Shown one piece after another: positions 1,227-41,066 of a stretch of DNA of 64,000 bases. This DNA comes from an uncultured bacterium (lineage in GTDB: Bacteria > Actinomycetota > Acidimicrobiia > Spongiisociales > ZC4RG35): NCBI GenBank assembly GCA_963825585.1, contig CAWGTX010000008.1, positions 107,908 through 171,907 of the forward strand, read 5' to 3'. The notes under the pieces were generated by a model. That model was not told the origin of the DNA, searched no databases, and was given only the letters and a program-made list of their open reading frames with translations. The position numbers were made by a program, and so were the translations under genes. Position 1 is the stretch's first letter; each line of letters begins with the position of its first letter.

Positions 1227-1333
1227 GCAGCGAGGAGCGAGGAGCGAGGAGCCGGAAACCCGTTGGAACGAGATCAGCGCTCACCTCGGACGGACCGGAT
1301 TGTCGGCGTTCTGGCTCCTCGCCCCTCGCCCCC
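1227..1333. repeat. heptamer-armed hairpin element: (CGAGGAG)3 left arm, inverted CGAGGGG/CGAGGAG right arm, about 60-nt core
   Basis: Left arm gcagcgaggagcgaggagcgaggagcc (1227-1253). Right arm ggctcctcgcccctcgccccc (1313-1333). The arms are reverse complements with one mismatch near the loop. Confidence 0.8.
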
Positions 1334-4738: not shown

Positions 4739-4764
4739 TCCGGTTTCGGATCCAGAACCGAAGA

Positions 4765-4797
4765 GGGCCGCCTGCCGTCCGGCAGGCGGCCCTTTTG
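4765..4797 (+). terminator. rho-independent terminator
   Basis: gggccgcctgcc-gtcc-ggcaggcggccc gives a perfect 12-bp stem followed by TTTTG, 27 nt after the stop at 4738. Confidence 0.8.
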
Positions 4798-6730: not shown

Positions 6731-6847
6731 CGAGGGGTTGGGAGCGAGGGGCGAGGGGAAGACCGGCACGCTCTTTGCAGCACGTCAACGTGGCCGGGGC
6801 GCCGGCAGCCTTCCGCCTCTTCGCTCTCAGCTCCCAGCCCCTCGCCG
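6731..6847. repeat. heptamer-armed hairpin element (CGAGGGG type) between convergent genes
   Basis: Left arm gcgaggggttgggagcgaggggcgagggg. Right arm cgctctcagctcccagcccctcgcc. 14 of 15 positions are complementary in the best segment. Confidence 0.7.
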
Positions 6848-9070: not shown

Positions 9071-9166
9071 TGCGTTCTCCTTGCCTTGTGTCTTCCTGCC
9101 AGCTGCCAGCTGTTAGCTGCCAGCCAGACTCGAACTCGCTCCTCGCCAGTAGCCAGTAGCTGCTCT

Positions 9167-9940: not shown

Positions 9941-9953
9941 AACCAACCCCGAC

Positions 9954-10003
9954 GGTGAACGGTGAACGGTGAACGGTGAACGGTCGCGGCTGAACAGTGA
10001 ACC
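9954..10003. repeat. (GGTGAAC)4 tandem heptamer plus degenerate copies
   Basis: ggtgaacggtgaacggtgaacggtgaac at 9954-9981, followed by ggtcgcggctgaacagtgaacc. Intergenic within a minus-strand gene string. Confidence 0.85.
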
Positions 10004-16995: not shown

Positions 16996-18351
16996 GTGAT
17001 GGCTGGTTCGAGGAAAGGAGTCCCCAACGGGGACTCGAAGCGAATGGACGTGAGGAAGCTCCTCGCACTGTTCGCAGTACTGGCAATGGTGATCGCCGCC
17101 TGTGGCGGTGGTGACGATGCCGTCGAGACCACGGCCGGCGCTGGTGGAGACGCTGGTGGCGACGGCGAGCAGATCGAGCTGCTCGTGTGGGCGTCGCGCG
17201 ACTGGTACGCAGTGCCCGACGATTTCGCAGCCTTCATGGAGGCGAACCCCAACGTCACCGTGACCCAGGACGTCCAGGGCAACGACGACATCCTGCAGCA
17301 GCTCCAGCGCATGAAGGATGCCGGTCAGCGCATGCCCGACATCGTCAATGACGACAACTTCCTGATGGAGGCCTACGTCGCCGGCGGGTTCGTGCTTCCC
17401 TTCGACGAGTGGAAGGACAAGTGGGAGGCTGAGTACCCAGACGAGTACAACAACATCCTCCCGGTCGCCTGGGAAGAGAACACCATCGACGGTCAGGTCT
17501 GGGGCGTGTCGCTCACAGCCAACTTCGACGTCCTCTACTACAACGTGGAGCACATCGAGGCTGCCGGTGTCGACCCGACCGCCATCAACTCGCTCGACGG
17601 TGTGCTCGATGCGATGCGGGCAGTCAAGGCGTCGAATCCCGACGTCATCCCGCTGACGGTGCAGGCGCTTCCTGGCCAGGGCGTCACCACACTGAAGACG
17701 GTTCTGGCTGCGGCCGGCGCCCCGTTCGACGGTGCGGTTCCCGACCTCACCAGCCCCGGTGGCATCTACTCGCTGAACTGGTTCATCACCGCTGCCAACG
17801 AGGGGCTGTTGCCCCCCGAGGCGATCGCATGGGGTGAGGGCGAAGCACGTGGCGCCTTCCTGGGCAAGAACGCAGGGTTCATCCTCGACGGCTTCACCGT
17901 CGCCGGTGACTTCGCCGAAGAGGAGGGCTTCGACCTCGGCACGGTGTGGGGTGTGTTCCCCGTTCCGGCCAGCCAGACCGGCGCCCAGAAGGATGGCAAC
18001 CAGGTGTCCGCCTCCCGGGCGTGGTTCATCAACGCCGACACCGAGCATCCTGAAGAGGCCTTCCAGGCCATCCGCGAGGTGCACAACACGCTGCTCGATC
18101 AGGCCGAGAACGGTGGCGTGCCCATGCGGAACAGCGAGTTCCTCGCCGATCCACGCCTGGAGACGCTGTGGCCGTTCTTCGACGACACGCTCCGTGCGGC
18201 ATACGCCGGCTCCGCGACAACGCCTGCCGGTCTCAACGGTGGCGAAGTCGAGGGTGTCCTCGAGGAGCTGTTCGGTGAGATCGTCATCGGCACCGACAAG
18301 AGCGCCGAAGACCTGGCTGCCGAGTATCAGGAGATCCTCAACGGCCTGTGA
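16996..18351 (+). CDS. ABC transporter substrate-binding lipoprotein (CUT1 sugar type)
   Basis: ORF track, 451 aa. Signal peptide with lipobox LAMVIAACGGG. Followed by two MalF/MalG-type permeases. Confidence 0.85.
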   Translation: MMAGSRKGVPNGDSKRMDVRKLLALFAVLAMVIAACGGGDDAVETTAGAGGDAGGDGEQIELLVWASRDWYAVPDDFAAFMEANPNVTVTQDVQGNDDILQQLQRMKDAGQRMPDIVNDDNFLMEAYVAGGFVLPFDEWKDKWEAEYPDEYNNILPVAWEENTIDGQVWGVSLTANFDVLYYNVEHIEAAGVDPTAINSLDGVLDAMRAVKASNPDVIPLTVQALPGQGVTTLKTVLAAAGAPFDGAVPDLTSPGGIYSLNWFITAANEGLLPPEAIAWGEGEARGAFLGKNAGFILDGFTVAGDFAEEEGFDLGTVWGVFPVPASQTGAQKDGNQVSASRAWFINADTEHPEEAFQAIREVHNTLLDQAENGGVPMRNSEFLADPRLETLWPFFDDTLRAAYAGSATTPAGLNGGEVEGVLEELFGEIVIGTDKSAEDLAAEYQEILNGL

Positions 18352-18389
18352 TCTCACCGATCACATGACGACGACATGACCCGCCTCGA

Positions 18390-18428
18390 GTTTGTCTCTC
18401 CCCCGGCCCCGCCGGGGGAGAGACAAAC
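18390..18428 (+). promoter_or_regulatory. intercistronic stem-loop (perfect 17-bp stem, 5-nt loop, no U tract)
   Basis: gtttgtctctcccccgg-ccccg-ccgggggagagacaaac, between the binding-protein gene and the first permease gene. Confidence 0.7.
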
Positions 18429-18470
18429 CGGGAGGGTCGATCCATCAGGCGATTTTCGAGGAGCGGCCAG

Positions 18471-19424
18471 GTGACGGCGACCGCAGAACGGACCAAGAGT
18501 CCCAAGCAGCGTCGGAAGAAGACCGACGAAGTCCAGCAGAACAGCGCCCTGATTGGCCACAGTAAGGCACTGCCCTACTTGTTCTCGATGCCATCGATCC
18601 TGGTCGTGACGGCGATCCTCGCCTTCCCGGTCCTGTACGGCACCTGGCAGAGTTTCTACCGGCCCGAGATGCTGGGCGCCACTGCCGAGTGGGTGGGGTG
18701 GCAGAACTACCGGACCATGTTCGCCGACCGCGACTTCCTCAACTCGTTGTGGCGGACGTTTCAGTTCACGTTCGGTGTGCTGGTGGTGGGCACGGTGCTC
18801 GGCCTGTTCTTCGCCGTCGCCCTCTACAACGCCGCCGGCAAGCTTCGTTTCCTCCGTGCCGTCACCCTGGCGCCCTACCTGATCTCGAACGTGGCGGCCG
18901 CCGTGATGTTTCGGATCCTCTTCAACAACGAGTTCGGCATGGTGAACGCCGGTCTCCGCCTCATCGGGATATCGGAACCTCCCGTCTGGTTCGCCGACCA
19001 GACCTGGGCGATGGGCGTCATCATCTTCGCCCAGGTGTGGACCGACCTCCCGCTCACAATCCTGCTCCTACTGGGCGGTCTCATGACGATCGACCGCTCT
19101 TACATGGACGCAGCACTCGTCGACGGCGCCTCACCATGGCAACGGGTGCGCTATCTGACGATCCCATTCCTGGCACCACAGATACTGATCAGCACCGTGT
19201 GGCTCAGCTATTCGACGCTGACCGGCCTCGGAGTGGTGTTGGCCATGACCGGCGGTGGTCCACTGAAGGCAACCAACACCCTGGCGATGCAGATGTACAC
19301 CGTGGCGTTCCGGAACCTGAAATTCAACGACGCCCTCGCCATCGCCACCTTCATCCTGATCATCAACGCCATCCTGACCCTCGCCTATGTGGCGATCGCC
19401 CGCAAGAACGAAGTGGAGGTGTGA
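18471..19424 (+). CDS. carbohydrate ABC transporter permease (MalF-like)
   Basis: ORF track, 317 aa. GTG start after GAGGAG. Multiple hydrophobic spans. Confidence 0.85.
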   Translation: MTATAERTKSPKQRRKKTDEVQQNSALIGHSKALPYLFSMPSILVVTAILAFPVLYGTWQSFYRPEMLGATAEWVGWQNYRTMFADRDFLNSLWRTFQFTFGVLVVGTVLGLFFAVALYNAAGKLRFLRAVTLAPYLISNVAAAVMFRILFNNEFGMVNAGLRLIGISEPPVWFADQTWAMGVIIFAQVWTDLPLTILLLLGGLMTIDRSYMDAALVDGASPWQRVRYLTIPFLAPQILISTVWLSYSTLTGLGVVLAMTGGGPLKATNTLAMQMYTVAFRNLKFNDALAIATFILIINAILTLAYVAIARKNEVEV

Positions 19425-19425
19425 C

Positions 19426-20322
19426 ATGGCGACCAGACCCATCGACGCCAATACCGCAACCACCGGTCACGTTCCTGCAGGAAGGTCCTACTCGCCGTTC
19501 ATGAAGGCTCTGAGGGCCGTGGGCCGGGGATTACCACTCACGCTGTTGGTGCTGTGGACCGTCGTACCCTTCCTGGTCACGATCTCGATCTCGCTCAAGA
19601 CCAAAGGTGAGACGTTCGCCAACTACGGGCTCATCCCCGAGAACCCCACGATCGAGGCGTATCAACTGATCATCGCCGACCCCGACTTTCGGGGGGCGTT
19701 CCTGAACTCCATCATCGTGGGGTTGGGCACGGCAGTGATCAGCATCCTGATCGCGTTCCCGGCCGCCTACGCATTCGCCCGGTTCAACTTCAAAGGCCGG
19801 CACTTCCTGCTCCTGTTCACGCTCCTGCCACGGCTGGTGCCGAGCATCGGGATCATGGTCCCCATCTACCGGCTGGCGGTCTCCTCCGGCCAGCTCGACA
19901 AGCGGTCCACCCTGATGATCGTGTACGCCGGAATGCTGTTGCCGCTTGCGGTCTGGCTCATGGTCGGGTTCTTCCAACAGATCCCCCGCGACATCGAAGA
20001 AGCCGCCAACGTCGACGGCGCCACGTTGATGGACCGGATGAGACACATCGTGGTGCCCCTGGCGGCGCCGGCACTCATCACCATCGCCGTGCTCGCCTTC
20101 CGCGAGGCGTGGAACGAGTTCACGCTGGTGCTGGTGCTGACCACCACTCCCGGCAAGCGCACGTTGCCCTTCGAGTTGTTCATGCTCCAAGCAGCCGAAG
20201 GCGTCCAGAACTTCCCCGGAGAGGCAGCGTTCGCCCTGCTCTCGGTCCTCCCGTTCATCCTCGTCTACACCAGGATCGAGCGCTACGTCGTCGCAGGACT
20301 GACGGCGGGAAGCTCCAAGTAG
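19426..20322 (+). CDS. carbohydrate ABC transporter permease (MalG-like)
   Basis: Inner ATG 19426 after GGAGG, within ORF 19387..20322. EAANVDGATLMDRMRHIVVPLAAP EAA-loop motif. Confidence 0.85.
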   Translation: MATRPIDANTATTGHVPAGRSYSPFMKALRAVGRGLPLTLLVLWTVVPFLVTISISLKTKGETFANYGLIPENPTIEAYQLIIADPDFRGAFLNSIIVGLGTAVISILIAFPAAYAFARFNFKGRHFLLLFTLLPRLVPSIGIMVPIYRLAVSSGQLDKRSTLMIVYAGMLLPLAVWLMVGFFQQIPRDIEEAANVDGATLMDRMRHIVVPLAAPALITIAVLAFREAWNEFTLVLVLTTTPGKRTLPFELFMLQAAEGVQNFPGEAAFALLSVLPFILVYTRIERYVVAGLTAGSSK

Positions 20323-20367
20323 AACCGGGCTCCATCGTGGGTGTACCCCTGGGCCCGCGCCCGGGGT

Positions 20368-20513
20368 ACAACGTAGAACGTAGAACGTACAACGTACTGC
20401 TGGCCTCGAGGGCTCTCAGGATCCTCGTCTCTACCGTCCGGCATTCGTCGGCCCCAGTAGTCCCAGCGGGATCGGGTTGCCGGACCTTGAACGTTCTACG
20501 TTCTACGTTCTAC
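20368..20513. repeat. heptamer-armed hairpin element (CGTAGAA type)
   Basis: Left arm acaacgtagaacgtagaacgtacaacgtac (20368-20397). Right arm gaacgttctacgttctacgttctac (20489-20513). The right arm supplies the last codons (VERRT) and the stop of the ADH gene. Confidence 0.8.
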
Positions 20514-21455
20514 CGGTGTGAGCACGACCTTCAACCGCCCCACCGCCGGCTTGGCAGCCAACTCGTACGCCTCCTGCATACGTTCCAAGGGGAGCACGTG
20601 GGTGACGTAGGACTTCATCATGCCCGGGTAGCGCTCGGTGTAGGTCATCGAGCGGAGCATCGCCTGGCGACGGACCTTCTGCGGGGTGCGACCGGCGTGG
20701 AGGATGACGTCCTTGTCCATCATGCGGCCGAAGTCGACGGGGTAGTAGCGATCGTCGGGATTTCCGAAGTACACCACCGTGCCGCCGGGGGCGACCACGT
20801 CGATGGCGTCCTGCATGGTTCCCACCTGGTGGCCGACGGCTTCGATCACCAGGTCGAACCGATCCAGGTTGGCGGACGACCATGCCCGTCCGATCACGGT
20901 CTCGGTCTCGTCGAAGCCGAACGCCGAAGCCACCGTGGTGCGGTCAACCAGGTCGATGCCCGTGATGTGGGCGACACCGCGGTCCTTGAGAGCGTGGCCA
21001 TAGAGCAACCCGATCGGGCCCATCCCGATGACGGCCGCCCGCAGCCCCGTCAGGTCGCCCAGCCGCGTCATGGCGTGCAGCACACACGCCAACGGCTGGA
21101 GGGGTGCCGCCTCGATATCATCCATGTCCGGGTGTGCCGGCGCCAGCGCCTCGGCTTCGGTCACTATGTACTCCGTGAGCCCCAGACTGCGACCGACCCA
21201 GCCCACCACCCGCTCGCCGACGGGTAGGTCGGAGCGGGTGGCGACCACGTCGCCGACGATCTCATGCAGCGACAACCCGAATGGGCCGGGACGGGCGACG
21301 GAGCCACCGTCGAAGCAGCGGGCGATGTCACTCCCGCAGATCCCCCCTGCTCGAAATCGGAGGACGACGCTCCCGTCGGGAACGTCGTCCATGCTCGGCT
21401 CCGGGATGTCGTGACGGGAGAACGTGAGCGGACCGTCCAGGCGGTAGGCCCACAT
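20496..21455 (-). CDS. Zn-dependent alcohol dehydrogenase (MDR family)
   Basis: ORF track, 319 aa. GGICGSD, GHEIVG-like LHEIVGDV and VIGMGPIGL Rossmann motif. Confidence 0.8.
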   Translation of the reverse strand: MWAYRLDGPLTFSRHDIPEPSMDDVPDGSVVLRFRAGGICGSDIARCFDGGSVARPGPFGLSLHEIVGDVVATRSDLPVGERVVGWVGRSLGLTEYIVTEAEALAPAHPDMDDIEAAPLQPLACVLHAMTRLGDLTGLRAAVIGMGPIGLLYGHALKDRGVAHITGIDLVDRTTVASAFGFDETETVIGRAWSSANLDRFDLVIEAVGHQVGTMQDAIDVVAPGGTVVYFGNPDDRYYPVDFGRMMDKDVILHAGRTPQKVRRQAMLRSMTYTERYPGMMKSYVTHVLPLERMQEAYELAAKPAVGRLKVVLTPVERRT

Positions 21456-21510
21456 CAGACGGGCGAACCGGCAGAAGAGGGGATTTGCCTGAGCGTGTGG
21501 TGGTCATCTG

Positions 21511-21691
21511 CAGAACGCAGAACGCTGAACGCCGAACGCCCGAACCCAGGAACAGAACGCAGGTCGACGAACGACGAAGGTCCACGCCGCGTCGTCATGT
21601 GACTCAGCTCAGAGTGTGCTCTCGCAAAACGTCTGATCATGACGACGCGTGTTTGGGCGTTCCGCCTTCTGCGTTCTGCGTTCTGCGTTCG
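21511..21691. repeat. nested long hairpin element (CGCAGAA-type arms plus an inner 11-bp stem)
   Basis: Outer arms 21511-21562 and 21655-21691. Inner stem gcgtcgtcatg / catgacgacgc (21589-21599 / 21638-21648). Confidence 0.75.
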
Positions 21692-21692
21692 A

Positions 21693-22913
21693 TCACAGCA
21701 TCAGCCTCTCTTCGTACTCCACCCGAGACAGCAGGTGCGGGTCGCCTTCGGTGATCAGGACCATGTCCTCGATCCGCACGCCGCCACCACCGCGAACGTT
21801 CGGGACCCACACCAGTGGCTCCACTGCGAACACCTGGTTCGGCTGGAACTCGTAGGTGGTGGCGCCGGGGAGGGTCTCACCGATGTAGGGAGGTTCGTTG
21901 GAGCCGATGCCGATGCCGTGGCCGATGAACAGGCTGAACATGTTCTCGGCGAGGCCGTAGTCGCCGATCTTGTTGATCATGGCGTCGGCGGCGTCCTTGT
22001 TGGTCTTGCCAGGACGCATCTGGGCGATGCCCGCCATCAGGCCTTCGTAGACCGCCGTGTAGATCGTCTTCTGCTGTTTGGAGGGCTTGCCGACGATGGT
22101 GGTGCGTCCGATGTCGGCGAAGTAGCCGTTCCACATGGCACCGATGTCGACGAAACACATGTCCTGGTTGCGGATGAGCTTGTCGGTGGCGAGGCGGTGG
22201 GGTGGCGACATGTGCTCACCCGAGGCGAAGAACGGGGTCATGACGTGTGCCATCTCGCCGCCCAGATAGAACAGGGTCTGCATGGCGTCACCGGCCACCT
22301 CGAGCTCGCGGCGGCCGGCCTTGGCGCCGTCGAGGGCACGCTGGGTGACCGAGTCGCCGATGGCGCACGCCTCCTCGATGACGGCGACTTCGATGTCGGT
22401 CTTGAGCCAGCGGGCGCTTTGCATGATGGTGTCGCCGTCGACCAGTTCCAGGTCGGGGAGGTGCGTCCTCATCGACTGCATGAAGGAGATGTTCGCCTGG
22501 TCCACACCGAGCTTGCCCGAGAGCAGACCGCGGGCCGAGAGGATCGGGGTGAGGATGTCCTTGACGAATCCGTCGACCAGTTCGCGCTGTTCCATGATGG
22601 GCACGGCGTGGGCTTCGCCGATCCAGCTCATCCCGAACTTGGCCTTGTCGATCTCTCCGCCCGATCCGAGCAGCACGGGGTCGCCGGTCGCCGTGAGGAA
22701 GGCGCCGTTGAGCGAGGTGGTCTTGCCCGCCAGGAGCTGGGCGCGCAACGAGGTGATGTAGCGGACGTTTTCGTCTTTCCACACCAGGATGGCGTCGGCC
22801 TCCGAAGCGGCGATCGCCGCCTGGGCCTTCGCCACGCGCTGGCGGCGGAGCTCGGCAAAGTCGTACCGGTCTTCCCAATCGACCGCGAACGGCCCCTTCG
22901 CATATCCGCTCAT
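21693..22913 (-). CDS. M24 family metallohydrolase (Xaa-Pro peptidase / creatinase / DddP-like)
   Basis: Inner ATG 22913 (GGAGAGAGA upstream) of ORF 21693..23033. Canonical ligand positions are visible: VDIGAMWNGYFADIGRT, GHGIG, FAVEP and VRIEDMV. Confidence 0.8.
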   Translation of the reverse strand: MSGYAKGPFAVDWEDRYDFAELRRQRVAKAQAAIAASEADAILVWKDENVRYITSLRAQLLAGKTTSLNGAFLTATGDPVLLGSGGEIDKAKFGMSWIGEAHAVPIMEQRELVDGFVKDILTPILSARGLLSGKLGVDQANISFMQSMRTHLPDLELVDGDTIMQSARWLKTDIEVAVIEEACAIGDSVTQRALDGAKAGRRELEVAGDAMQTLFYLGGEMAHVMTPFFASGEHMSPPHRLATDKLIRNQDMCFVDIGAMWNGYFADIGRTTIVGKPSKQQKTIYTAVYEGLMAGIAQMRPGKTNKDAADAMINKIGDYGLAENMFSLFIGHGIGIGSNEPPYIGETLPGATTYEFQPNQVFAVEPLVWVPNVRGGGGVRIEDMVLITEGDPHLLSRVEYEERLML

Positions 22914-23065
22914 GACTGCTCTCTCTCCGACGGTGTTGAGACACTGCGTTCTATATTCGGTATAATACAGACCGTACAGTCGGGCACCAAGCCGCCCGGC
23001 ATTCACAACCCGTGGGGCGCGCCGCCGTATCATCGCCCTTTCGGGCCACGAGCATTGGGGCGAAT

Positions 23066-23731
23066 GTGACGATCGAAGGGTTCCAACTGGACTCGAGTAG
23101 GACCAAACGGGTCACCGCTGTCGACCTGGTCCGAGACGTGCTTCGCAACGCCATCATCCGCGGCGACCTTCCTGGCGGATCGCGGCTCGTCCAAACCGAC
23201 ATCGCCGCCCAGCTCAACGTGAGTACGACGCCCGTCCGTGAGGCGATGCGTGACCTGGCCAGTGAAGGGCTCATCACCCTCGACAGCCACAAGATCGGCA
23301 TCGTGCGGGGGCCTGACTGGGCCGAGATGGTCGAGATCGTCGAGGTGCGGACCGCACTCGAACCGGTGGCGCTGGCGCACGTGATCGCCAACATCACCCC
23401 AGACGAGCTGGCCCAGGCCAGGGTCTACGCCGAGCAGATGGCGGCCGACAGTGACGTCGGGACGTGGGTCCAGACCAACACCCGCTTCCACACCATCTTC
23501 CATCGTGCCACCCGTACCCAGCGGCTCGCCACCATGCTGGTCACCCTCGAGGAGGCGAGCGGGGTGTTCGTCGCGCAGACCCAGACCTATCACCCCCAGA
23601 CCCGACGCCGCGCCATCGAGGATCACTTCGCCTTGCTCGAGGCCGTCGAAGCCAAGGACATCGACCAGGCGCTGGCAGTCCAGCGGCGCCATCTCCAGCT
23701 TCCGCTGGAGAGTCACGCCTTGGACGTGTGA
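23066..23731 (+). CDS. GntR family transcriptional regulator (FCD/FadR-like C-terminal domain)
   Basis: GTG 23066 within ORF 23012..23731. LRNAIIRGDLPGGSRLVQTDIAAQLNVSTTPVREAMRDLASEGLI winged-helix motif. Divergent from the M24 gene. Confidence 0.85.
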   Translation: MTIEGFQLDSSRTKRVTAVDLVRDVLRNAIIRGDLPGGSRLVQTDIAAQLNVSTTPVREAMRDLASEGLITLDSHKIGIVRGPDWAEMVEIVEVRTALEPVALAHVIANITPDELAQARVYAEQMAADSDVGTWVQTNTRFHTIFHRATRTQRLATMLVTLEEASGVFVAQTQTYHPQTRRRAIEDHFALLEAVEAKDIDQALAVQRRHLQLPLESHALDV

Positions 23732-24410
23732 CGCAGAAGGCCCAGAGGTACAACGTAGAACGTACAACGTAGAACGTACCGGAACCCGGCCCTCAGCCAC
23801 CGTTGACCCCTGAACCGTCGGCTCGTACACGTGGCAACAGTAAACCAAAGCACTTCACACCCTCGGCCAAGCACGACTCACCCAGTACCAGTACCGGCGG
23901 GGGGTCGAAGGGGGGTCGTCCCCCCCTGGGCATTAAACCGAACGCAGAACGCCAGAGGTACAACGTAGAACGTAAAGCGTAGAACGTACCGGAACCGTTC
24001 ACAGTTCACCGTCGGAACGTGGCAACGGGCCACGACCAACCTTCACACCCTCGGCCAAGCGCGAGTGCACTCCACCCCAGCAACGCAGAACGCCCAGAGG
24101 TACAACGTAGAACGTAAACCGTAGAACGTCCCAACCAGGTATCGACGCAGTTCACAGTTCACCGTCGGAACGTGGCAACGGGCCACGACCAACCTCCACA
24201 CCCGCAGTCACGAGTGCACTCCACAACCAGCACCGGGGGGGTCGTCCCTCGAGAACCGTTGACGCAGAACGTGGCGACCTGAATGCCGGTCGGGCACCTC
24301 CACACCCTCGGCCAGGCCCGCGATTCGTCGTGGGCATTACCGGCGGGGGGTCGAAGGGGGGTCGTCCCCCCTGGGAATAGTCGTCCCCCCTGGGCATGAC
24401 TGGGCATCAA
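23731..24410. repeat. 680-bp non-coding composite tandem array (about 3.5 units of 141-211 bp)
   Basis: Units start at 23731, 23942, 24083 and 24262, each opening with acgcagaa(c/g)g(c)ccagaggtacaacgtagaacgta. They share the internal blocks ccgtcggaacgtggcaacgggccacgaccaacc and accggcggggggtcgaaggggggtcgtcccccc. Confidence 0.8.
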
Positions 24411-24414
24411 CTCC

Positions 24415-25186
24415 TCACCACAGGTCGCTGAACTGCTCTTTCACCTTCACGAGTCCGGCCGTGACCAGCTTCACGTCGTTGGTGGGGCAGATGAGGGTGC
24501 AGCCCTTCTCGGCCACCAGGGTTGCGAACGCCGGGGTGGGGGTGACGGCGCCCCACGTCTTCCCGTTGGCTTTACAGGCAGCGGCGACCCGGTCGATGGC
24601 GGCGATCGAGTCTGGATGCATGAAGTCACCGGTGATGCCGAGCGCCTGGGTCAGGTCGGAGGGGCCCACGAACAGCAGGTCGATGCCGTCTATTGCGGCG
24701 ATGTCCTCGACCTGGGCGATGGCGCCGGCGGTTTCGATCTGAACGGCGACGAATGTCTCGCGGTTGGCCTTCTCGGCGAACTCGGCGAGCGGGATCGATC
24801 CGATAGGCGCCGTCGTAGCCGAGCGGGTTGAGGCCCCGATGACCACGGGGAGCGAACTTCGACCAGCGGACGAACTCCTCGGCGTGCTCGGCCGAGGTGA
24901 TCTGGGCAGCCATCACGCCGCCGGTGCCGCTCTCGAAGCACCGGGTGACGGTGGCGTAGTCGGTCGGTGGGACCCGGACGAACGTGTCGAGCCCGTGGGC
25001 CCGGCCGGCCATCACGGCCACCTCGACGTCGGCGGTGGTGAGACCGGAGTGTTCGGTGTCGATCCAGAACCCGTCGAAGTCGCCCGTCATCCCCAGGTAC
25101 TGGATGATGTTGGGATGGAACATGCGTCCCACGGCAAAGACGACCAGCTTCTCGCCGTTGGCGAGTCGGTTCTTCATGGACTCCAT
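24415..25186 (-). pseudogene. HpcH/HpaI family aldolase, one frameshift near 24802 (or a sequence error)
   Basis: ORFs 24626..25186 and 24415..24846 are the N- and C-terminal halves of one protein (...NPLGYDGAY | [23 protein letters not shown]...). An extra base sits in tat-c-gga. Confidence 0.7.
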
Positions 25187-28352: not shown

Positions 28353-29291
28353 TCACAGCACGCGGATGGGGCTTCCGGCCCGCCACGCCTCGATGTCCTC
28401 GACCGCTTCGGGGTAGAAGATCTCGTAGGTCTGTTCGGTGACGTAGCCGATGTGGGGCGTGGGCAGGATCTTCGGGTGATGACGCAGCGGGTGATCGACT
28501 GCGAGTGGCTCGGGTTCGAACACGTCGAGGGCAGCCCCGGCGATGGCGCCCGCATCGAGTGCGGCCACCAACGCCTCGGTGTCGACGAGTGGCCCGCGGG
28601 AGGTGTTCACCAGGTAGCCGGTGGGTTTCATGATGAACAGGTCGGCGGCGCCGATCACGCCAACAGAGCGTGGACCCAGCTTGAGGTGGAGGGTCACGAA
28701 GTCCGAGCTGGTGAGCAGCTCCTGTTTGGTGACCTGGCGGACGCCGATCGTCTCGCACCGCTCGGCGGTGAGGTTCTGGCTCCAGGCGACCACATCCATA
28801 CCGAAGGCCAACCCATAGGCGGCCACCTGGGACCCGACCCGACCCAGCCCGACCACACCCAACACCGCGCCCTTCAGGTCGCGGCCCAGACCCAGCTGCC
28901 ACTCGCCGTTCCGCACACCGGTGATCTCACCCATGAGGTTGCGGGCCAGCATCTGGATGAGCGCGAACGACAGCTCCGCGGTGGCGTGGCCCGACGAGGC
29001 GGTCCCACACACCAGCACCCCCAGCTCCTTGGCGGCGTCCATGTCGATGGCCGAGTTTCGTGACCCGGTGGTGACCAACAGTCGCAGATTCGGGAGCGCC
29101 GACAACAGCGGTCGGTCGAACGGCGTGCGTTCGCGCATGGCAACGATCGCATCGAAGCCGGATAGGCGGTCGACCAATGATGCGTGGTCGTCGAGGTGAT
29201 CGGAGAAGAACACGACCTCGCCGCCGAGCCGTCCCCAGTCGGCCAGACCGGCAGCCACCTGCTGATAGTCGTCGAGCACAGCAACCCGCAT
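28353..29291 (-). CDS. D-isomer-specific 2-hydroxyacid dehydrogenase
   Basis: Inner ATG 29291 of ORF 28353..29552. GVVGLGRVG Rossmann motif, NTSRG, and HIGY near the C-terminus. Confidence 0.85.
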   Translation of the reverse strand: MRVAVLDDYQQVAAGLADWGRLGGEVVFFSDHLDDHASLVDRLSGFDAIVAMRERTPFDRPLLSALPNLRLLVTTGSRNSAIDMDAAKELGVLVCGTASSGHATAELSFALIQMLARNLMGEITGVRNGEWQLGLGRDLKGAVLGVVGLGRVGSQVAAYGLAFGMDVVAWSQNLTAERCETIGVRQVTKQELLTSSDFVTLHLKLGPRSVGVIGAADLFIMKPTGYLVNTSRGPLVDTEALVAALDAGAIAGAALDVFEPEPLAVDHPLRHHPKILPTPHIGYVTEQTYEIFYPEAVEDIEAWRAGSPIRVL

Positions 29292-29415
29292 GGCGCCATT
29301 CATGCAGGTATTGCCGCCCGGGGCAAGAACCGCCGGTTGCCCTCGCGGGCCACGAGCACGACCGGTAGTCTTGCAATCGATTGTCGCTACCCCTCGTAGG
29401 AAAGAGAACGACCCC

Positions 29416-31121
29416 GTGACCATCGGCATCGAACATGGCGGAACCGCTTTGGTGGAGCTTCTCGTGGCACACGGGGTGAAGGTGGTGTTCGGGCTCCCGG
29501 GAGGCCAGACCGCCGCCCTGTACGACGCCATCGAACGTGACGATCGCATCACCCACGTCGGCGTCCACGACGAACGATCGGCCGCTTACGCAGCCGATGC
29601 ATACGCCCGCCTCACCCGCACGGTCGGTGTGTGTGATGCCACGGTGGGCCCCGGTACCGCCAAGTTGCCATCGGGGTTGGGTGAGGCGTTCAATTCGTCG
29701 ATCCCGGTGCTCGCTCTGGTGAGCGAACTCCCCACGTCCACCGAGGCCCGGTGGCACCGCGGCGCCACCTCGCAGGCACTCGACCAGGAAGCGCTGCTCG
29801 TTCCGGTGACGAAGTGGGTGGGTACCGTCCGCAGGATCGACGACCTTGGACCGATGGTTCGGCGGGCGTTCCGCGAAGCGACCACCGGGCGCCCGGGACC
29901 GGTGGCGCTCATCATCCACCAGGACATCCTCGACGGCCCGGTGCCGATCGACTCGCAGGCGACCGACCCCCAGGCGGCCCGGTTCGGAGCCTTCCCCGCC
30001 ACCTCGCCGGCGCCGGACGATAGTGATCTGGCGGCTCTCGTCCAGTTGCTCGAACGCGCCGAACGCCCGCTGCTCGTGGTGGGAGGCGGGGCGGTCGGGC
30101 CGGGCTCGAACGCGGTGTTGGCACGCGTCTCGCCGACGCCGGTATCGCAGTCGCAACGACCCTGTCGGGCAAGGGCGCCATCGACGAACGCCATCCCATG
30201 GCGGTGGGCGTGCTCGGGTCGCTCGGCACCCCGGCGTCACGGGCGATGGCATTCGAGGCCGACCTGTTGGTGGTGGCAGGCTCCAAACTCGGAAGCGGCA
30301 CCACCCTCGGCTGGTCGTTGCCGGGGGAACACCATCGGGTCGTACAGATCGACATCGATCCGGTAGAACTGGGCCGCGACCGACCGGTCGATGTGATCAT
30401 CCATGCCGACGCCCTCGCCACTCTCGCCGCCCTGCAGCCGGCTGAACGCGAGCGAGGCTCATGGCGAGCTGCAGTCGCCGAGGCGCGGGCTGAGTGGTAC
30501 GAGCAGCGATCGGTCATGTGGTCATCGGCCGAAACGCCCATCGACCCGCAACGGGTGATGGGCGAGCTGCAACGACTGCTGGGCGACGGTCACGTGGTGG
30601 TGGCGGACGCCAGTCTGTCGAGTGGCTGGGTGGGGGCGTTCCTCGAATCCGACGCCGGCCTCCGAACCCTGTTCCCACGCGGACTGGCCGGGCTCGGCTG
30701 GGCGATTCCGGCGGCGGTGGGAGCCGTCGAGGCCGGAGTCCCGCGCATCGTCGCCGTGATGGGAGACGGCGCCGCCCCCTACGCCATCGGTGAACTCGCC
30801 ACCCTCACGCGCCAGGGTGCACCGGTGGTGATGGTGGTCCTCAACAACAGTTCGTTCGGGTGGATCCGCTGGTACCGACGCCTCACCTTCGGGCGTGGGT
30901 GGGAGGAACCCGATCTTCCGCCCACCCGCTTCTCCGACGTCGCCGCCGCCTATGGTCTGCACGCCGAACGCGTGGAGGACCCCGACCGCCTGGCAGGCGC
31001 CTTCGCCGAAGCCTTCGCCATCGGCGGCCCCTCGCTCATCGAGGTGGTGACCTCGGTGTGGGAAACCCCGATCGTCGCTCACCGGGAAGCGCTCGAGAAG
31101 CAGGAGGTCGCCGACTACTGA
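29416..31121 (+). pseudogene. thiamine-diphosphate enzyme (acetolactate synthase-like), one frameshift near 30128
   Basis: GTG 29416 within ORF 29290..30366 (VFGLPGG...). Continues in ORF 30198..31121 (LADAGIAVATTLSGKG..., GDGAAPYAIGELATL..., NNSSFG ThDP motif). Confidence 0.7.
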
Positions 31122-31123
31122 AG

Positions 31124-31157
31124 CTCCTTGCTCCTCGCTCCTCGCTCCTCGCTCGCC
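31124..31157. repeat. tandem heptamer (CGAGGAG on the minus strand), three or more copies
   Basis: ctccttgctcctcgctcctcgctcctcgctcgcc, immediately after the stop at 31121. Confidence 0.75.
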
Positions 31158-36603: not shown

Positions 36604-36790
36604 GGGTAGGGGCGGGGCGAGGCTCTGCGAGTCCGCCCAAACCCGATGGCGTTCACTCGCTCGGTCAGTTCCAGCGCGGTCTTTGGCCGGTGGCAGGGTG
36701 CCGAGTCCCCCATCGTGGATCACAGGTTCGGCCGCAGGGGTCTGGGCGGCCTCGCAGAGCCTCGTCCGGTCGCTTCGATCGGCCGACCCT
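36604..36790 (+). repeat. copy A of a palindromic 145-nt element with 25-nt terminal inverted repeats (core 36619-36763)
   Basis: gaggctctgcgagtccgcccaaacc (36619-36643) pairs with ggtctgggcggcctcgcagagcctc (36739-36763). Confidence 0.8.
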
Positions 36791-36863: not shown

Positions 36864-37045
36864 CGGGTAGGGGCGGGTGAGGCTTTGTGAGTCCGCCCAA
36901 ACCCGATGGCGTTCACTCGCTCGGTCAGTTCCAGCGCGGTCTTTGGCCGGTGGCAGGGTGCCGAGTCCCCGATCGAGGATGACAGGTTTGGCCGCAGGGG
37001 TCTGGGCGCCCTCGCGGAGCCTCGGTCGCCCCTACGCGCGTGGCG
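36864..37045 (+). repeat. copy B of the same element (core 36879-37023), 260 nt downstream of copy A
   Basis: gaggctttgtgagtccgcccaaacc (36879-36903) pairs with ggtctgggcgccctcgcggagcctc (36999-37023). The interior is nearly identical to copy A. Confidence 0.8.
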
Positions 37046-37127
37046 TCGCCTCGAGTCCCCATCGGGTCCAAGTCCCGATCCAGACTGGTCGCAGCAGTGA
37101 ACGGTGAACGGTCGACGGTGAGCGGCT

Positions 37128-39849: not shown

Positions 39850-40122
39850 TCACGTTCGTCTCGATGGCCTGCAGGCAGGATTGCGTGAGGCGTTGGCCAT
39901 CTCGTGGTAGAGACGGTGGCGTCGAGCGAACGACGGTCGTCTGGCACAATGAGGCTTAGCGGATAGGGGTGGCGGACGCCCCCACACAGTGGGGAGGGGG
40001 CCGTCCGGCGCAAGCGCCGGGCGACGAAGGAGCGGGGTAGGGGTCGAGAGTCCACGAGACCAACTCCGCACACGTTCCGGAACGCCCCTTCATGCTCGCG
40101 AGGGATAGGCCCCCCTTTTCGA

Positions 40123-40305
40123 CTACCTGATCGACGGCCCGTCCCAGCCGAGTCCCAGCGCGTCGGCCCCGGCTTCGCGGTCGACGGCGACGATCGGCAC
40201 GAAGAACCCGATGGGCTCACCGTGGCGCTCGACGATCAGCGTCTCGCCGGACGCCATCAGCTGAGTGGCCTGATCCCTGAACTCCCTGATCCCGATCGAC
40301 CGCAC
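40123..40305 (-). CDS. Phd/YefM-type antitoxin (orphan)
   Basis: GTG 40305 lies 7 nt after AGGAGG. VRSIGIREFRDQATQLMASGETLIVERHGEPIGFFVPI. Inner part of ORF 40123..40470. Confidence 0.65.
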   Translation of the reverse strand: MRSIGIREFRDQATQLMASGETLIVERHGEPIGFFVPIVAVDREAGADALGLGWDGPSIR

Positions 40306-40374
40306 TTCCCGACCTCCTGGGACCACAAGTGTAGCCACTTTGAACCCAGGTGCCAGCTTCCAGCTAGCGAACGC

Positions 40375-40854: not shown

Positions 40855-40945
40855 CCGTTAGAACCAGCGCCCTTCCCCCTCTCGCAAGCTCGAGGGGGAC
40901 AAAGCTGTTCCCTATCCACGCGACCTATTGTGCAAAACGTGGAAA

Positions 40946-41066
40946 CTCGCTCGTCGCTCGTCGCTCGTCGCTCGTCGCTCGTCGCTCGTCGCTCGTCGCT
41001 CGTCGCTCGTCGCTCGTCGCTCGTCGCTCGTCGCTCGTCGCTCGTCGCTCGTCGCTCGTCGCTCGT
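40946..41066. repeat. about 17 near-perfect tandem copies of the heptamer GCTCGTC (CGACGAG on the minus strand)
   Basis: The read-through is unbroken from 40946 to 41066 and abuts the formamidase stop codon at 41067. Confidence 0.9.

Follow-up and report, generated by a model that had tools for sequence, protein, structure and literature searches.

The 64,000-nt stretch of DNA analyzed here (hereafter the window) belongs to an uncultured soil or sediment actinobacterium of the class Acidimicrobiia and carries period-7 tandem arrays at about 12–13 or more intergenic loci. The reading that we favor, with roughly even confidence, is that these arrays are selfish or near-neutral, lineage-specific insertional intergenic repeat DNA of the known heptanucleotide-repeat class. 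The elements are real and fast-changing, yet their kind has already been described in Xanthomonas, cyanobacteria and Geobacter. The observations behind this reading are the anatomy of the elements, their excess over chance, their multi-copy state, arms that are inverted duplicates of each other, one presence/absence polymorphism and the turnover of units at conserved sites. The lineage offers a natural experiment, as several unit families occur in one genome and a ~90%-identical sister lineage lacks or replaces individual elements.

Heptamer Arrays in the Window

Exact period-7 arrays of at least 2.5 units numbered 9 (9–10) in the window, compared with 0.0 in dinucleotide shuffles. The same count revealed no comparable excess at periods 5, 8 and 9–15, while period 6 was slightly raised (4 exact arrays vs. 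0.7 in shuffles). TRF reported 23 period-7 arrays of 2.1–17.1 copies in the window, and by both approaches the arrays consist of 7-nt units in tandem, head to tail, with at least 2–3 units each. These counts bear out the proposal of a first-pass annotation that one non-random intergenic family of related heptamers is present, and every tract listed there was recovered at or within a few bases of its place. Its consensus, CGNNGAR, was only partly adequate: (CGNNGAR)3 with at most one mismatch gave 31 matches at about 12 loci of the window (0.32 expected), although it is a loose description that CGAGGGG and CGTACAA do not fit. One of its tracts, described as CGCAGAA from 23731 onward, amounts to merely 1–2 units.

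The units fall into two sets, CGAGGAG/CGAGGGG/CGACGAG and CGTAGAA/CGCAGAA/CGGTGAA, related mostly by 1–2 substitutions (Table 1). Period-7 arrays of unrelated units were also found at E3 (CTGCCAG and GCCAGTA) and at E9 (CCTGATC), and for the latter, given its unrelated unit, membership of the family is doubtful. Array length in the window ranges from 2 to 17 units; point variants of the unit occur within arrays, and inner units are degenerate while outer units are perfect. The non-coding mosaic of 684 nt harbors three direct copies (23731–23780, 23941–23990, and 24083–24132) of a module composed of ACGCAGAAcGCCCAGAG and (GTACAAC GTAGAAC)x2, together with a CAGTTCA array (24148–24162) and further repeated modules. 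The 32-nt higher-order module (GTACAAC GTAGAAC)x2 is thus found at three sites of the 23.7–24.1 kb mosaic and, with a rearranged order of units, in the left arm of E5. A search of the whole window against Rfam 15 at gathering score gave 0 matches and a tRNA/tmRNA search gave none, so the heptamer elements do not belong to a known RNA family.

Table 1. Heptamer elements of the window, with their units, genomic surroundings and predicted folds (z, relative to shuffles).
Element	Type	Position	Strand	Arms, units and core	Genomic context	Fold
E1	Hairpin	1227–1333		Left arm (CGAGGAG)x3.5, 1227–1253; core 1254–1312; right arm CTCCTCG/CCCCTCG, 1313–1333	Between SDR stop (1349) and cupin start (1202), both minus strand	MFE −65 kcal/mol; z −4.1; 27 arm-to-arm pairs
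E2	Hairpin	6731–6845		Left arm CGAGGGG-type, 6731–6759; right arm 6810–6845	Between convergent genes, stops 6722 and 6858	z −4.5
E3	Direct-array mosaic	9096–9160	+	(CTGCCAG)x4; 1.5 units CTCCTCG; (GCCAGTA)x2.3	Between SDR stop (9167) and cyclase start (9070), both minus strand	
E4	Single array	9952–9984	+	(ACGGTGA)x4.7	Between histidinol-dehydrogenase-like stop (10005) and SDR start (9940)	
E5	Hairpin	20366–20513		Left arm GTACAAC/GTAGAAC, 20366–20397; core 20398–20486; right arm (GTTCTAC)x3, 20487–20513	Between convergent permease (stop 20322) and ADH (20496–21455, minus strand)	z −5.8
E6	Hairpin	21510–21690		Left arm GCAGAAC-type, 21510–21562; core; right arm (TGCGTTC), 21651–21690	Between M24 peptidase stop (21693) and ADH start (21455)	z −6.5
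Mosaic	Non-coding mosaic, 684 nt	23731–24414	+		Between convergent GntR (stop 23731) and gene ending at 24415	
E7	Single array	31123–31154	+	(GCTCCTC)x4.6	Starts 1 nt past TGA stop (31121); ends 37 nt ahead of following GTG start	
E8	Single array	37097–37125	+	(GTGAACG)x4	2 nt from stop (37128) of CMD-family gene, minus strand	
E9	Weak array	40269–40297	+	(CCTGATC)x4 with indels	5' edge of IS30 transposase fragment	
E10	Array	40947–41066	−	Perfect, 17 units as assembled, CGAGCGA/CGACGAG	Directly after TGA (41067) of formamidase gene fragment	
E11	Hairpin element, 139 nt	44608–44746	−	Inverted pair 44630–44742; arms 44630–44660 (CGAGGGG) and 44711–44742	At overlapping stop/start of two genes	
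E12	Hairpin	59036–59144		Arms 59036–59065 and 59114–59144	Between divergent genes, AraC-type regulator (58548–58964, minus) and large SARP/BTAD-kinase ORF (from ~59300, plus)	z −4.3

Hairpin Architecture

At about half of the loci two inverted arrays enclose a core, and the other half are single arrays without a hairpin. The six inverted pairs (E1, E2, E5, E6, E11, and E12) fold with 25–32 arm-to-arm pairs, minimum free energies of −59 to −96 kcal/mol and z values of −3.6 to −6.5 relative to shuffles, in agreement with the long hairpins anticipated from the letters. As the two arrays flanking a core are inverted duplicates, a hairpin of 25–32 bp is possible from either strand. The arrays of E4, E7, E8, and E10 do not fold alone, and neither do single arms. 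Irregular units recur at matching positions of both arms, namely [T/C]TGGGAG in E2 and the 8-nt GCCC[G/A]AAC in E6, which identifies the arms as inverted duplicates rather than independently grown arrays. Across all loci, 19 adjacent array pairs are inverted and 8 are direct, six of the latter being interrupted arrays with gaps of at most 18 nt. The purine-rich arm is the 5' arm in all six window hairpins and in 16 of the 19 inverted pairs. The marked strand asymmetry of the units, pointed out previously, is a trivial consequence of arm composition where arms are paired, whereas the constant position of the purine-rich arm is not trivial.

The cores are locus-specific and measure 50–95 nt, not 60–115 nt as had been estimated. 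A common boundary had also been suggested for three of them, and it is real: E1, E11, and E12 share ..GCGTTC..CTGGCTCCTCG, and the boundaries GAGCCAGAACGC ... CCGGC of E12 are common to E1 and E11. What these three have in common is the asymmetric inner boundaries (10–15 nt) and the tail; the rest of the cores is not shared. A boundary-specific 22-mer, GKTCTGGCTCCTCGCYCCTCGC, gave 0 matches among JGI metagenome contigs, so this subfamily is not traceable there. Hairpins of the form (CGAGGGG)n-core-(CCCCTCG)n do recur in metagenome contigs of 45–69% GC, often wedged between stop codons. Potential for a G-quadruplex (at least four G-runs of three or more per array) was seen only in the left arm of E2 (6734–6758), and quadruplex formation is impossible for GAACG-type and CGAGGAG units; the family as a whole is not a G-quadruplex family.

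Presence/Absence Polymorphism at E11

A ~90%-identical lineage, found in four unrelated metagenomes (X3, X4, X7, and X8) from sediment, freshwater and rhizosphere, lacks exactly the E11 segment. In one contig from each, position 44607 is joined to 44747 with 0 letters between and 5 fitting both sides, and the element is present whole in X1, which is the same strain as the window. Two copies of CATCAG in direct orientation flank the element (44608–13 and 44747–52); the duplicated CTGATG that bounds it in the window is the overlapping stop/start of the two neighboring genes, which in the sister lineage simply overlap. Precise absence together with the duplicated hexamer is the signature of a target-site duplication. 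The comparison of orthologous intergenic regions recommended in the first-pass annotation has thus led to a presence/absence polymorphism, apparently one clean insertion between translationally coupled genes, with the element supplying a new ribosome-binding site, as its tail contains the Shine-Dalgarno (SD) sequence GAAGGAGG of the downstream gene. This is the only clean empty site found, and it may reflect either an insertion in this genome or an exact deletion from the sister lineage; a homologue search with the downstream gene, intended to provide an outgroup, gave no match at E ≤ 1e-80. At the other five hairpins, candidate target duplications were 5-mers at chance level and relatives showed other sequence rather than empty sites. 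A GCCTG duplication at E1 was rejected, because relatives keep the same ATG behind different upstream sequence.

It is conceivable, though rather unlikely in our judgment, that the hairpins represent an unrecognized, very small (110–230 nt), non-autonomous mobile element characterized by a duplication of ~6 bp, location at gene junctions, an outward ribosome-binding site, a 5' purine arm and exchange of units. Such an element would insert at gene junctions, including overlapping stop/start codons, and the units of its arms would be exchanged between loci; the outward-facing ribosome-binding site would keep the downstream gene translated. Like MITEs, the window elements are small, non-coding and multi-copy with long inverted arms, and one copy, E11, combines a 6-bp target-like duplication with an empty site in a relative. 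Unlike MITEs, E11 has no terminal inverted repeat: its extreme ends are not complementary and its arms are subterminal, beginning 6 and 24 nt inside the CATCAG-bounded segment. The cores are locus-specific with 0x extra depth, and no parent insertion sequence was seen in the window. The only transposase of the window is an IS30 fragment (~40330–40854), and no candidate mobilizing enzyme was seen; IS30 itself was rejected as the mobilizer, the fragment having no link to the heptamers. Target duplications of the IS30 family are shorter than the 6 bp seen at E11. A search for a RAYT (IS200/IS605-like Y1) transposase found 0 among the ~35 window ORFs scanned (64 kb of genome).

If this mobile element were real, the same mechanism could explain the heptanucleotide excess and the convergent pairs in Xanthomonas, cyanobacteria and Geobacter, and could extend to the metagenomic contigs with (CGAGGGG)n-core-(CCCCTCG)n hairpins. 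Some of these observations also count against the insertional repeat DNA that we favor: a single clean empty site, the lack of a terminal inverted repeat at the very ends of E11, a window in which no candidate mobilizing enzyme was seen, and cores that differ from copy to copy, an unusual property in a transposed element. A genome-wide comparison of the two lineages could distinguish spread by insertion, by recombination or by slippage, and could equally tell whether the purine-arm-first topology reflects mechanism or selection.

Position Relative to Genes

All arrays of at least three units lie outside Pfam-supported coding sequence, except for the last five codons of the ADH gene, where the right arm of E5 encodes the C-terminus VERRT and the TAG stop (homologues end ..VVLSG*). 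At 11 of 12 loci the arrays are 0–21 nt past a stop codon, and one array supplies the stop codon. Both stop-codon contacts noticed earlier were verified, the ADH TAG lying inside the E5 array and the 17-unit array of E10 directly following a TGA. The adjoining genes are ordinary and functionally unrelated, and single arrays are of mixed orientation relative to transcription.

Arrays that hug stop codons equally fit a role at transcript 3' ends. The hairpins could in that case be functional RNA, either bidirectional terminators devoid of a U-tract or 3'-end stabilizers or processing sites, with selection on structure rather than on sequence, an explanation to which we assign a rather low probability. 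In its favor, five of the six hairpins start 2–15 nt past a stop codon or overlap one (E5), two (E2 and E5) separate convergent genes, and those in metagenomes are often found between stop codons. The ADH/permease hairpin is kept in relatives (L201–L204, JGI and Logan contigs) that build it of other units, with an entirely different arm sequence. A purine arm placed first would also leave a pyrimidine-rich arm to be transcribed last from either direction, and the RNA of this arm could form a weak hybrid with its template and so substitute for a U-tract. The Xanthomonas repeats, according to the account in PMC4692102, are transcribed, and their mean distance from the upstream ORF is 28 nt.

Against an RNA role, no T-run follows the arms at any hairpin (direct reading of the flanks; a consensus terminator scan of 18000–25000 also gave 0). 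The hairpins of intrinsic (Rho-independent) terminators are present and the U-run is missing, which, with the lack of Rfam matches, upholds the earlier opinion that the elements are neither canonical REP nor canonical terminator sequence. E1, E6, and E11 are located inside apparent operons, 19–55 nt ahead of the following start codon, and ending transcripts there would do harm. E12 stands between divergent genes, half of the loci have no hairpin at all, and the sister lineage dispenses with E11 while its genes overlap. Differences between the arms of E1 are G.U-compatible on the transcribed strand; in E11 this compatibility falls on the other, wrong strand, and the mismatches on the transcribed strand are of the C-A type. 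Finally, compact spacers of ~25–80 nt suffice in most relatives, and no RNA run was found to contain the sequence. The mixed orientation of single arrays, the hairpin between divergent genes and the G.U differences on either strand do not fit a strand-specific RNA function. On the favored reading, the hairpins probably share transcripts with the genes on either side and may incidentally stabilize or end them, without this being the reason for their existence. Sequestration of the downstream ribosome-binding site by CUCCUCG arrays was considered and was not predicted by minimum-energy folds.

Copy Number and Turnover in Related Strains

In related metagenome strains, depth over the arms exceeds that of the genes beside them 50–150-fold, and the arms adjoin many different sequences to the left and to the right. 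The cores are single-copy, with zero extra depth. These depth ratios pool every array-carrying organism in a community. The array of E4 reaches 440–1100x against flanks of 5–8x, again with many different flanks (runs X3, X4, X7, and X8), and the arms of E6 reach 200–680x against a core of 0x and flanks of 5–8x. The 684-nt mosaic likewise presents high multi-copy depth in metagenomes. Confinement of the tracts to the window, which had been named as an outcome that would speak against such a family, is therefore not seen.

Individual sites differ in how well they are conserved. Array and site of E4 are conserved in the X7 strain, and the X3 strain keeps the arms of E5 around a core of 21 nt. At the site of E6, the X4 and X5 strains have 74 letters instead of 231, and at that of E1 related strains have a different sequence of 76 or 169 letters, in which a CGGTGAA/CGGTCAA-type array adjoins the SDR stop. 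Replacement of units at the same intergenic site was observed at three sites in total (relative to L201–L204 and the X3–X5 strains). L202 and L203 differ by the inversion of one array segment, and L201 and L204 by unit-level changes at one site. Relatives at 73–85% protein identity mostly have compact spacers (~25–80 nt) without arrays, and their array density is 7 in 1.22 Mb as against 9–10 in the 64 kb of the window.

According to the favored reading, selfish or near-neutral insertional repeat DNA, the elements would arrive as small insertions, at least one of which would have made a 6-bp target duplication, and would settle directly past the stop of the preceding gene, in a place free of required sequence. 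Replication slippage would grow and shrink the arrays (2 to 17 units) and inverted duplication would shape the paired arms. Quick over-writing, by re-insertion or by recombination between arrays, would allow a site to persist while its unit changes. The mode of spread, the role of slippage and the neutrality of the elements are what we infer from the comparisons above. Two features are not predicted by a neutral model, namely the purine-arm-first bias (16/19) and the fact that (CGAGGGG)n-core-(CCCCTCG)n hairpins recur across contigs of 45–69% GC.

Alternatively, the arrays could be simple-sequence repeats grown in place, by slippage from a chance two-copy seed, with pairs arising through local template switching and without any movement between loci. 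Perfect arrays that range widely in length (2 to 17 units), point variants with degenerate inner and perfect outer units, and the unit-level differences between L201 and L204 at one site are all in line with such growth. We nevertheless find it unlikely, and slightly more so than the mobile element or the RNA role, given that a few units are found over and over, at dozens to hundreds of places, that a 14-nt higher-order module is found at three sites of the mosaic (23.7–24.1 kb) and rearranged in the left arm of E5, and that E1, E11, and E12 have non-repeat boundaries in common. E11, moreover, represents the gain or loss of a discrete 139-nt segment with a duplicated 6-mer, rather than an altered number of units.

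It is very improbable that the arrays serve as binding sites of a sequence-specific protein, whether a nucleoid or regulatory DNA-binding protein or one that, like a cold-shock protein, would bind single strands with a 7-nt footprint. Three heptamers would span 21 bp, i.e., two helical turns, and the set of related units is limited. Cold-shock proteins bind heptamer repeats with one protein per unit (reviewed in PMC4679880), and SARP regulators recognize heptameric direct repeats, by the description in PMC5930380, with E12 located directly upstream of a SARP/BTAD-type gene. On the other hand, close relatives carry different units at the same site, orientation relative to the genes is mixed, the arrays are established at gene 3' ends and not at promoters, and the genes nearby are ordinary ones with unrelated functions. 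The spacing of SARP sites is about one helical turn, as opposed to the contiguous heptamers found here. An artefact of long-read assembly has next to no probability: single-base indel errors do occur at 44779, 44832, and 45084/5 relative to all short-read contigs, but independent short-read contigs, from the X1 strain and from relatives, contain the arrays and hairpins, as do the JGI and Logan contigs L201–L204, so the elements as such are not artefacts, and the X1 short-read Logan contigs cover E11 whole and the core and right arm of E1 and E6, which excludes the assembly artefact that the first-pass annotation had allowed for.

Comparison with Known Repeat Systems

REP/BIME/REPIN elements of Proteobacteria are hundreds of short intergenic repeats, mostly past gene 3' ends, which often form inverted doublets folding as hairpins with a less conserved spacer. 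They combine with other motifs into mosaics and show turnover from species to species. The mosaic at 23731–24414 resembles REP/BIME mosaics. The REP unit is an imperfect palindrome of 20–40 nt and REPINs depend on a RAYT transposase; the units of the window form tandem heptamer arrays and are not palindromes. CRISPR was rejected, the heptamer units being contiguous and without spacers. Integron attC sites, which are hairpins after gene cassettes with 7-bp core sites and arms that are not tandem arrays, were also rejected, as the units here do not fit RYYYAAC/GTTRRRY and the arms are tandem arrays.

The closest parallels are found among intergenic heptanucleotide repeats, and the earlier opinion that the elements match no described family is not supported: such repeats are known from the accounts in PMC4692102, PMC4679880, and PMC2700814, and convergent inverted pairs near gene 3' ends from PMC4692102. 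Over-represented intergenic heptanucleotide repeats were described by Mrazek and co-workers in 2007, as summarized in PMC4679880 and PMC4692102. From the same summaries, long heptanucleotide simple repeats and the cyanobacterial STRR heptamers (Calothrix/Nostoc) are phylogenetically scattered and mainly non-coding, and cyanobacteria possess several heptamer unit families per genome. By these secondary accounts, Mrazek-type long repeats and STRR are classes set up on statistical or descriptive grounds, and no element anatomy is defined for them. Such accounts describe excess intergenic heptamers, to which no function has been assigned, in Xanthomonas, Nostoc, Geobacter, Chloroflexus and Beggiatoaceae.

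The best documented case concerns the GGGAATC repeats of Xanthomonas campestris/axonopodis and the GGGGA(C/T)T repeats of Nostoc PCC 7120 (Rehm et al., 2015; PMC4692102). As presented there, they have a purine/G-rich strand and 2–26 units, occupy ~180 loci per genome and are 89–93% intergenic. In Xanthomonas their distance to the 3' end of the upstream ORF is shorter than that to the following gene, they are rarer than expected between divergent genes, and they form 70–75 convergent opposite-strand array pairs per genome; two species occupy the same intergenic sites with different length and sequence, and a function was not found. On this description, the window elements have in common with the GGGAATC repeats tandem heptamers, a bias to gene 3' ends, convergent inverted pairs and site-conserved variation. 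They differ from those of Xanthomonas and Nostoc, as far as that source describes them, by having several unit families, most of them incapable of forming G-quadruplexes, and by their host, an uncultured member of Acidimicrobiia. Neither an empty-site polymorphism with a duplicated 6-mer nor inverted-duplicate arms, both found here, appear in the consulted part of PMC4692102.

Geobacter metallireducens has the heptamer families GGGACCG x4 (49 copies) and MTYCTGA x5, proposed to be regulator sites or RNA elements (PMC2700814). Like the window, it carries multi-copy arrays of four or five units, and MTYCTGA is displayed looping across both strands, apparently indicating inverted pairing. Unlike the window, the copy number is fixed, some copies are intragenic, and both the units and the phylum are others (PMC2700814). 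TAACTGA direct repeats are known from marine Beggiatoaceae and some Cyanobacteria and Bacteroidetes (PMC4679880). They resemble the window elements by their sets of 2–6 heptamers, overwhelmingly intergenic location and patchy phylogeny, with close relatives having shorter spacers without repeats, but they are mostly just upstream of start codons and in one orientation, with 1 indirect repeat in 170 sets (PMC4679880).

In practice, heptamer arrays of this kind break short-read assemblies and inflate intergenic regions. For instance, the gap occupied by the 684-nt mosaic measures ~25 nt in most of the GTDB relatives shown and 60 nt in one.

Period-7 Arrays and Hairpins

The heptamer feature described by the first-pass annotation is real, striking and well described. 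Within the window, period-7 arrays number 23 by Tandem Repeats Finder. A separate count of exact arrays with 2.5 or more units covered all periods from 4 through 15, with dinucleotide shuffles as control: period 7 gave nine arrays (312 nt) vs. 0.0 in the shuffles, periods 5, 8 and 9-15 were at background and period 6 was in slight excess (4 vs. 0.7). The motif (CGNNGAR)3, allowing up to one mismatch, has 31 matches at about 12 loci of the window (0.32 expected). Every tract listed in that annotation lies where it had been placed, with some details amended: CGAGGGG and CGTACAA do not fit the CGNNGAR consensus proposed for all units, CGCAGAA from 23731 onward amounts to just 1-2 units, and the cores between paired arms measure 50-95 nt instead of 60-115 nt. 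A small number of period-7 arrays of unrelated units are also present (CTGCCAG and GCCAGTA at 9096-9160, CCTGATC at 40269-40297).

Heptamer-repeat loci of the window and the arrangement of their arrays
Locus	Position	Arrangement	Structure
E1	1227-1333	two inverted arrays, same unit	folds as hairpin
E2	6731-6845	two inverted arrays, same unit	folds as hairpin
E3		direct mosaic	
E4		single array, unpaired	
E5	20366-20513	two inverted arrays, same unit	folds as hairpin
E6	21510-21690	two inverted arrays, same unit	folds as hairpin
E7		single array, unpaired	
E8		single array, unpaired	
E10		single array, 17 perfect units	
E11	44630-44742	two inverted arrays, same unit	folds as hairpin
E12	59036-59144	two inverted arrays, same unit	folds as hairpin
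684-nt region	23731-24414	direct mosaic	

At least six inverted arm pairs had been predicted to form long hairpins, and the folding check proposed with that prediction bears it out for six, with 25-32 arm-to-arm pairs, an MFE of -59 to -96 kcal/mol and z of -3.6 to -6.5 vs. shuffles. In E1, (CGAGGAG)x3.5 at 1227-1253 faces a complementary CTCCTCG/CCCCTCG arm at 1313-1333 across a 59-nt core. Irregular units are common to both arms (8-nt GCCC[G/A]AAC in E6, [T/C]TGGGAG in E2), and paired arms are therefore inverted duplicates of each other and not arrays grown independently. The common boundary noticed in three cores also holds: E1, E11 and E12 share the asymmetric non-repeat boundaries GAGCCAGA[A/C]C ... 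TTCCGGC and similar tails (GCAC plus a purine run), their difference being confined to the central ~30 nt.

Across all sequence compared, neighbouring same-unit arrays form 19 inverted and 8 direct pairs, and six of the direct pairs are interrupted arrays. The purine-rich arm is 5' in 16 of the 19 inverted pairs and in all six hairpins of the window, where random inverted duplication would predict 50:50; as this topology is identical on both strands, it is not a reflection of transcription direction. At least 120 JGI metagenome contigs contain (CGAGGRG)3; among the matches listed GC ranges over 44-72%, and many show (CGAGGGG)n, a unique 40-60 nt core and (CCCCTCG)n, often wedged between stop codons.

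Gene Context

According to Pfam and NCBIfam, the neighbouring genes are ordinary metabolic or regulatory ones (SDR, cupin, M24 peptidase, Zn-ADH, ABC permease, GntR, acyl-CoA dehydrogenase, histidinol-dehydrogenase-like and TPP enzymes). Flanking genes are co-directional at E1, E3, E4, E6, E7 and E11, convergent at E2, E5, E8 and the 684-nt mosaic, and divergent at E12 alone, where an AraC-type regulator lies on one side and a SARP/BTAD-kinase ORF on the other. Nearly all arrays start 0-21 nt past the upstream stop codon and leave 19-60 nt to the next start. Both reported contacts with stop codons are confirmed: at 20496, E5 replaces the final ADH residues (..KVVLTPVERRT* vs. ..KVVLSG* in homologues), and E10 begins directly after the TGA at 41067. 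Rfam and tRNA searches of the window gave no matches. The ORF beside E12 (59300-64000, plus strand, >1500 aa) runs off the window end; its translation, read by eye only, suggests a SARP/BTAD-like N-terminus and, after it, a Ser/Thr protein kinase domain. An ordinary, heptamer-free perfect hairpin, GTCTCTCCCCCGGC..GCCGGGGGAGAGAC at 18390-18428, separates solute-binding protein and permease genes; unlike the fast-turnover heptamer elements, its sequence is kept in the equivalents of two relatives (L201, L202).

Relatives and Metagenome Populations

When each species is represented by a single genome, the top relatives of the M24 peptidase all come from uncultured Acidimicrobiia (73-85% protein identity), and their 80 syntenic loci (1.22 Mb) have compact intergenic spacers and merely 7 exact period-7 arrays. 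The gap between GntR and the next gene is 684 nt in the window vs. ~25 nt in most relatives shown and 60 in one. Closer relatives were found through the ADH gene: four contigs (L201-L204, 82-89% identity, gene order kept) bear heptamer arrays or hairpins at two intergenic sites that also hold them in the window, built from different units, namely GCAGAAC and GTAGAAC in the window, CGGTGAA/CGGTCAA in L202/L203 and GCCGGAR/GCASGAG in L201/L204. Between L202 and L203, an array segment of ~40 nt is in opposite orientation. Two further contigs, L205 (81%) and L206 (74%), are without arrays.

The Zn-dependent ADH gene itself (20496-21455, minus), flanked by the M24 peptidase and ABC permease genes, is restricted to a sub-clade that coincides roughly with the heptamer-rich genomes; many species-representative genomes are without it, and in these M24 and permease converge directly at a distance of 31-84 nt or enclose a different gene. 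Relatives also have short-period arrays of their own at the ends of genes, including an octamer (GACCTGTT)x3.4 beside the GntR stop (L202, 3-29), (CCGACTT)x11 downstream of the M24 gene (L041, 11378-11456) and TACTGAG/TACTGAC/TACTGAT arrays with inverted partners (L059, 2418-3031).

Regarding public metagenome runs, the strain in X1 looks the same as that of the window, and X3, X4, X5, X7 and X8 hold a sister lineage ~90% identical to it. Word depth, which pools every array-carrying organism of the community, is 200-680x for the E6 arms and 440-1100x for the E4 array, vs. 5-8x for flanking genes and 0x for the E6 core. Dozens of contigs carry varied sequence on either side of the arrays; together these data indicate that arrays are highly multi-copy and cores locus-specific. 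The E6 site of the sister lineage has 74 letters vs. 231 in the window, one strain has both arms of E5 around a core of 21 nt vs. about 90, and the E1 site is occupied in sister strains by 76 or 169 letters of different sequence, with a CGGTGAA/CGGTCAA array adjoining the SDR stop.

Filled and Empty Alleles of E11

Orthologous comparison, suggested earlier as a check for presence/absence, shows E11 filled in the window and X1 and empty in the sister lineage. In the empty allele, represented by one contig each in four unrelated metagenomes, 44607 is joined straight to 44747, with 139 nt absent, no intervening letters and 5 letters fitting both sides. In the window, CATCAG stands at either edge of the segment (44608-13 and 44747-52); on the coding strand it reads CTGATG, in which the TGA stop of the acyl-CoA dehydrogenase overlaps the ATG start of the downstream gene. 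The empty allele has a single CTGATG and the genes overlap; the filled one has two, one serving as stop and the other as start, and the E11 tail supplies GAAGGAGG, a predicted new ribosome-binding site for the downstream gene. Whichever allele is ancestral, the duplicated CTGATG looks, in sequence, like a target-site duplication.

Compared with every short-read contig, including those of X1, the window has single extra bases at 44779, 44832 and 45084-45085. In the sequence as it stands, the ORF of the acyl-CoA dehydrogenase continues through E11 as far as 44610; taking out two bases puts the TGA at 44749-44751 in frame. A long-read assembly that still contains indel errors is the probable source of the window, and apparent frameshifts elsewhere in it thus call for caution. 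One TPP-dependent enzyme (42127-43700, minus) has its N-terminal/middle and C-terminal parts in different overlapping frames. In another (region 29290-31121, plus), ORF 30198-31121 has no more than the last portion of the middle domain plus the C-terminal domain, the N-terminal part presumably being in the overlapping ORF 29290-30366. Assembly indels are more likely than pseudogenes for these split frames.

Origin of the Arrays

Heptanucleotide repeat excess is documented in many prokaryotes, according to two accounts (PMC4679880, PMC4692102). For GGGAATC in Xanthomonas, Rehm et al. (PMC4692102) give ~185 arrays in each of two genomes, 89-93% intergenic, at a mean distance of 28 nt from the upstream ORF and 160 nt from the following one, with 70-75 cases of two convergent arrays on opposite strands; arrays are rare between divergent genes and mostly occupy the same gene pairs in both species, differing in length and sequence, and they report no function for them. 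The window elements are objects of this kind. In Geobacter metallireducens, heptamer families of four and five units occur in multiple copies (PMC2700814), and their MTYCTGA class, displayed looping across both strands, we read as inverted pairing; (GATAGRA)n occurs in Chloroflexus and TAACTGA sets in Beggiatoaceae and cyanobacteria (PMC4679880). The family is hence not undescribed, as had been supposed, but belongs to a known kind whose function is unexplained. It was rightly set apart from ordinary REP or terminator sequence: the unit is not palindromic, and no T-run follows any arm. Behaviour resembles that of REP/REPIN and MITE elements, although, unlike in REP/REPIN, the heptamer is not itself a palindrome and, unlike in MITEs, the inverted repeats lie away from the ends and the cores lack conservation.

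We give roughly even credence to the arrays being heptanucleotide-class insertional repeat DNA that is selfish or near-neutral. Small elements would insert at gene junctions, array length would rise and fall by slippage, and arms would arise as inverted duplicates. Arrays may be over-written at a site by re-insertion or inter-array recombination, so that the site persists and the unit changes. They would expand as far as the stop codon, since no sequence is required in that place, but would spare the ribosome-binding region of the next gene.

The main rival, that the hairpins are bidirectional terminators without a U-tract or 3'-end stabilisers, is unlikely; proximity to stop codons, retention of the hairpin through sequence change and the purine-first topology speak for it, but a strand-specific RNA role fits poorly with single arrays in mixed orientation, the segment flipped between L202 and L203, one hairpin located in a divergent promoter region, the placement of G.U-compatible arm differences, which is the transcribed strand in E1 and the wrong one in E11, and the dispensability of E11. 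Pure in-place slippage we consider quite doubtful. That the arrays bind protein is very improbable; SARP domains bind heptameric direct repeats (PMC5930380), and the position of E12 just upstream of the SARP/BTAD ORF is probably coincidence. An artefact is hardly conceivable; E11 is contained in X1 contigs and is therefore not an assembly product. What the analysis adds is evidence of a discrete insertion accompanied by target duplication, the turnover of units at sites that are conserved, and a topology bias, which together make repeat origin testable in the pair of window and sister lineage.

Other Repeats and Apparent Gene Remnants

A second, unrelated repeat family consists of a small G/C hairpin, CCCTTCCCCCCTCGCAAGCTCGGGGGGACAAG, at 40868-40902, 41681-41717, 49224-49261 and 40021-40043 (minus), which in run X8 is also joined to a GTTCCCTATCC motif. 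A formamidase/acetamidase (41067-41715, minus) retains the C-terminal part only (profile ~203-363 of 373) in two frames, with a REP-like hairpin upstream and the 17-unit heptamer array downstream; it appears to be a gene remnant amid junkyard sequence. Nearby, an IS30-family transposase (40330-40854, plus; NCBIfam NF033563, 128-267 of 267, E 9e-47) is missing its N-terminal half. The 20-mer GTTCCCTATCCRCGCGACCT occurs twice, at 40907-40926 and 59180-59199 (0.01 expected), each copy followed by ATWGTGCARA and lying 10-35 nt from a heptamer array; it may be an operator/promoter or a mobile-element end. A palindrome, CTGCACATTGTGCAG, lies at ~59232. A 34-nt exact repeat (23892-23925 and 24338-24371) contains GGGGGGTCGAAGGGGGGTCGTCCCCCC, a G6/C6 hairpin, and metagenome depth of 50-200x in the bins around it marks another multi-copy intergenic element. 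The 530-nt gap that contains E8 also has a MITE-like non-coding unit of 161 nt, present as direct copies at 36604-36764 and 36865-37024 with 94% identity and ending in a perfect 14-nt inverted repeat, CGAGGCTCTGCGAG ... CTCGCAGAGCCTCG. Finally, a near-perfect palindrome (93%) of 30 nt is located at 4764-4793, between two plus-strand genes.
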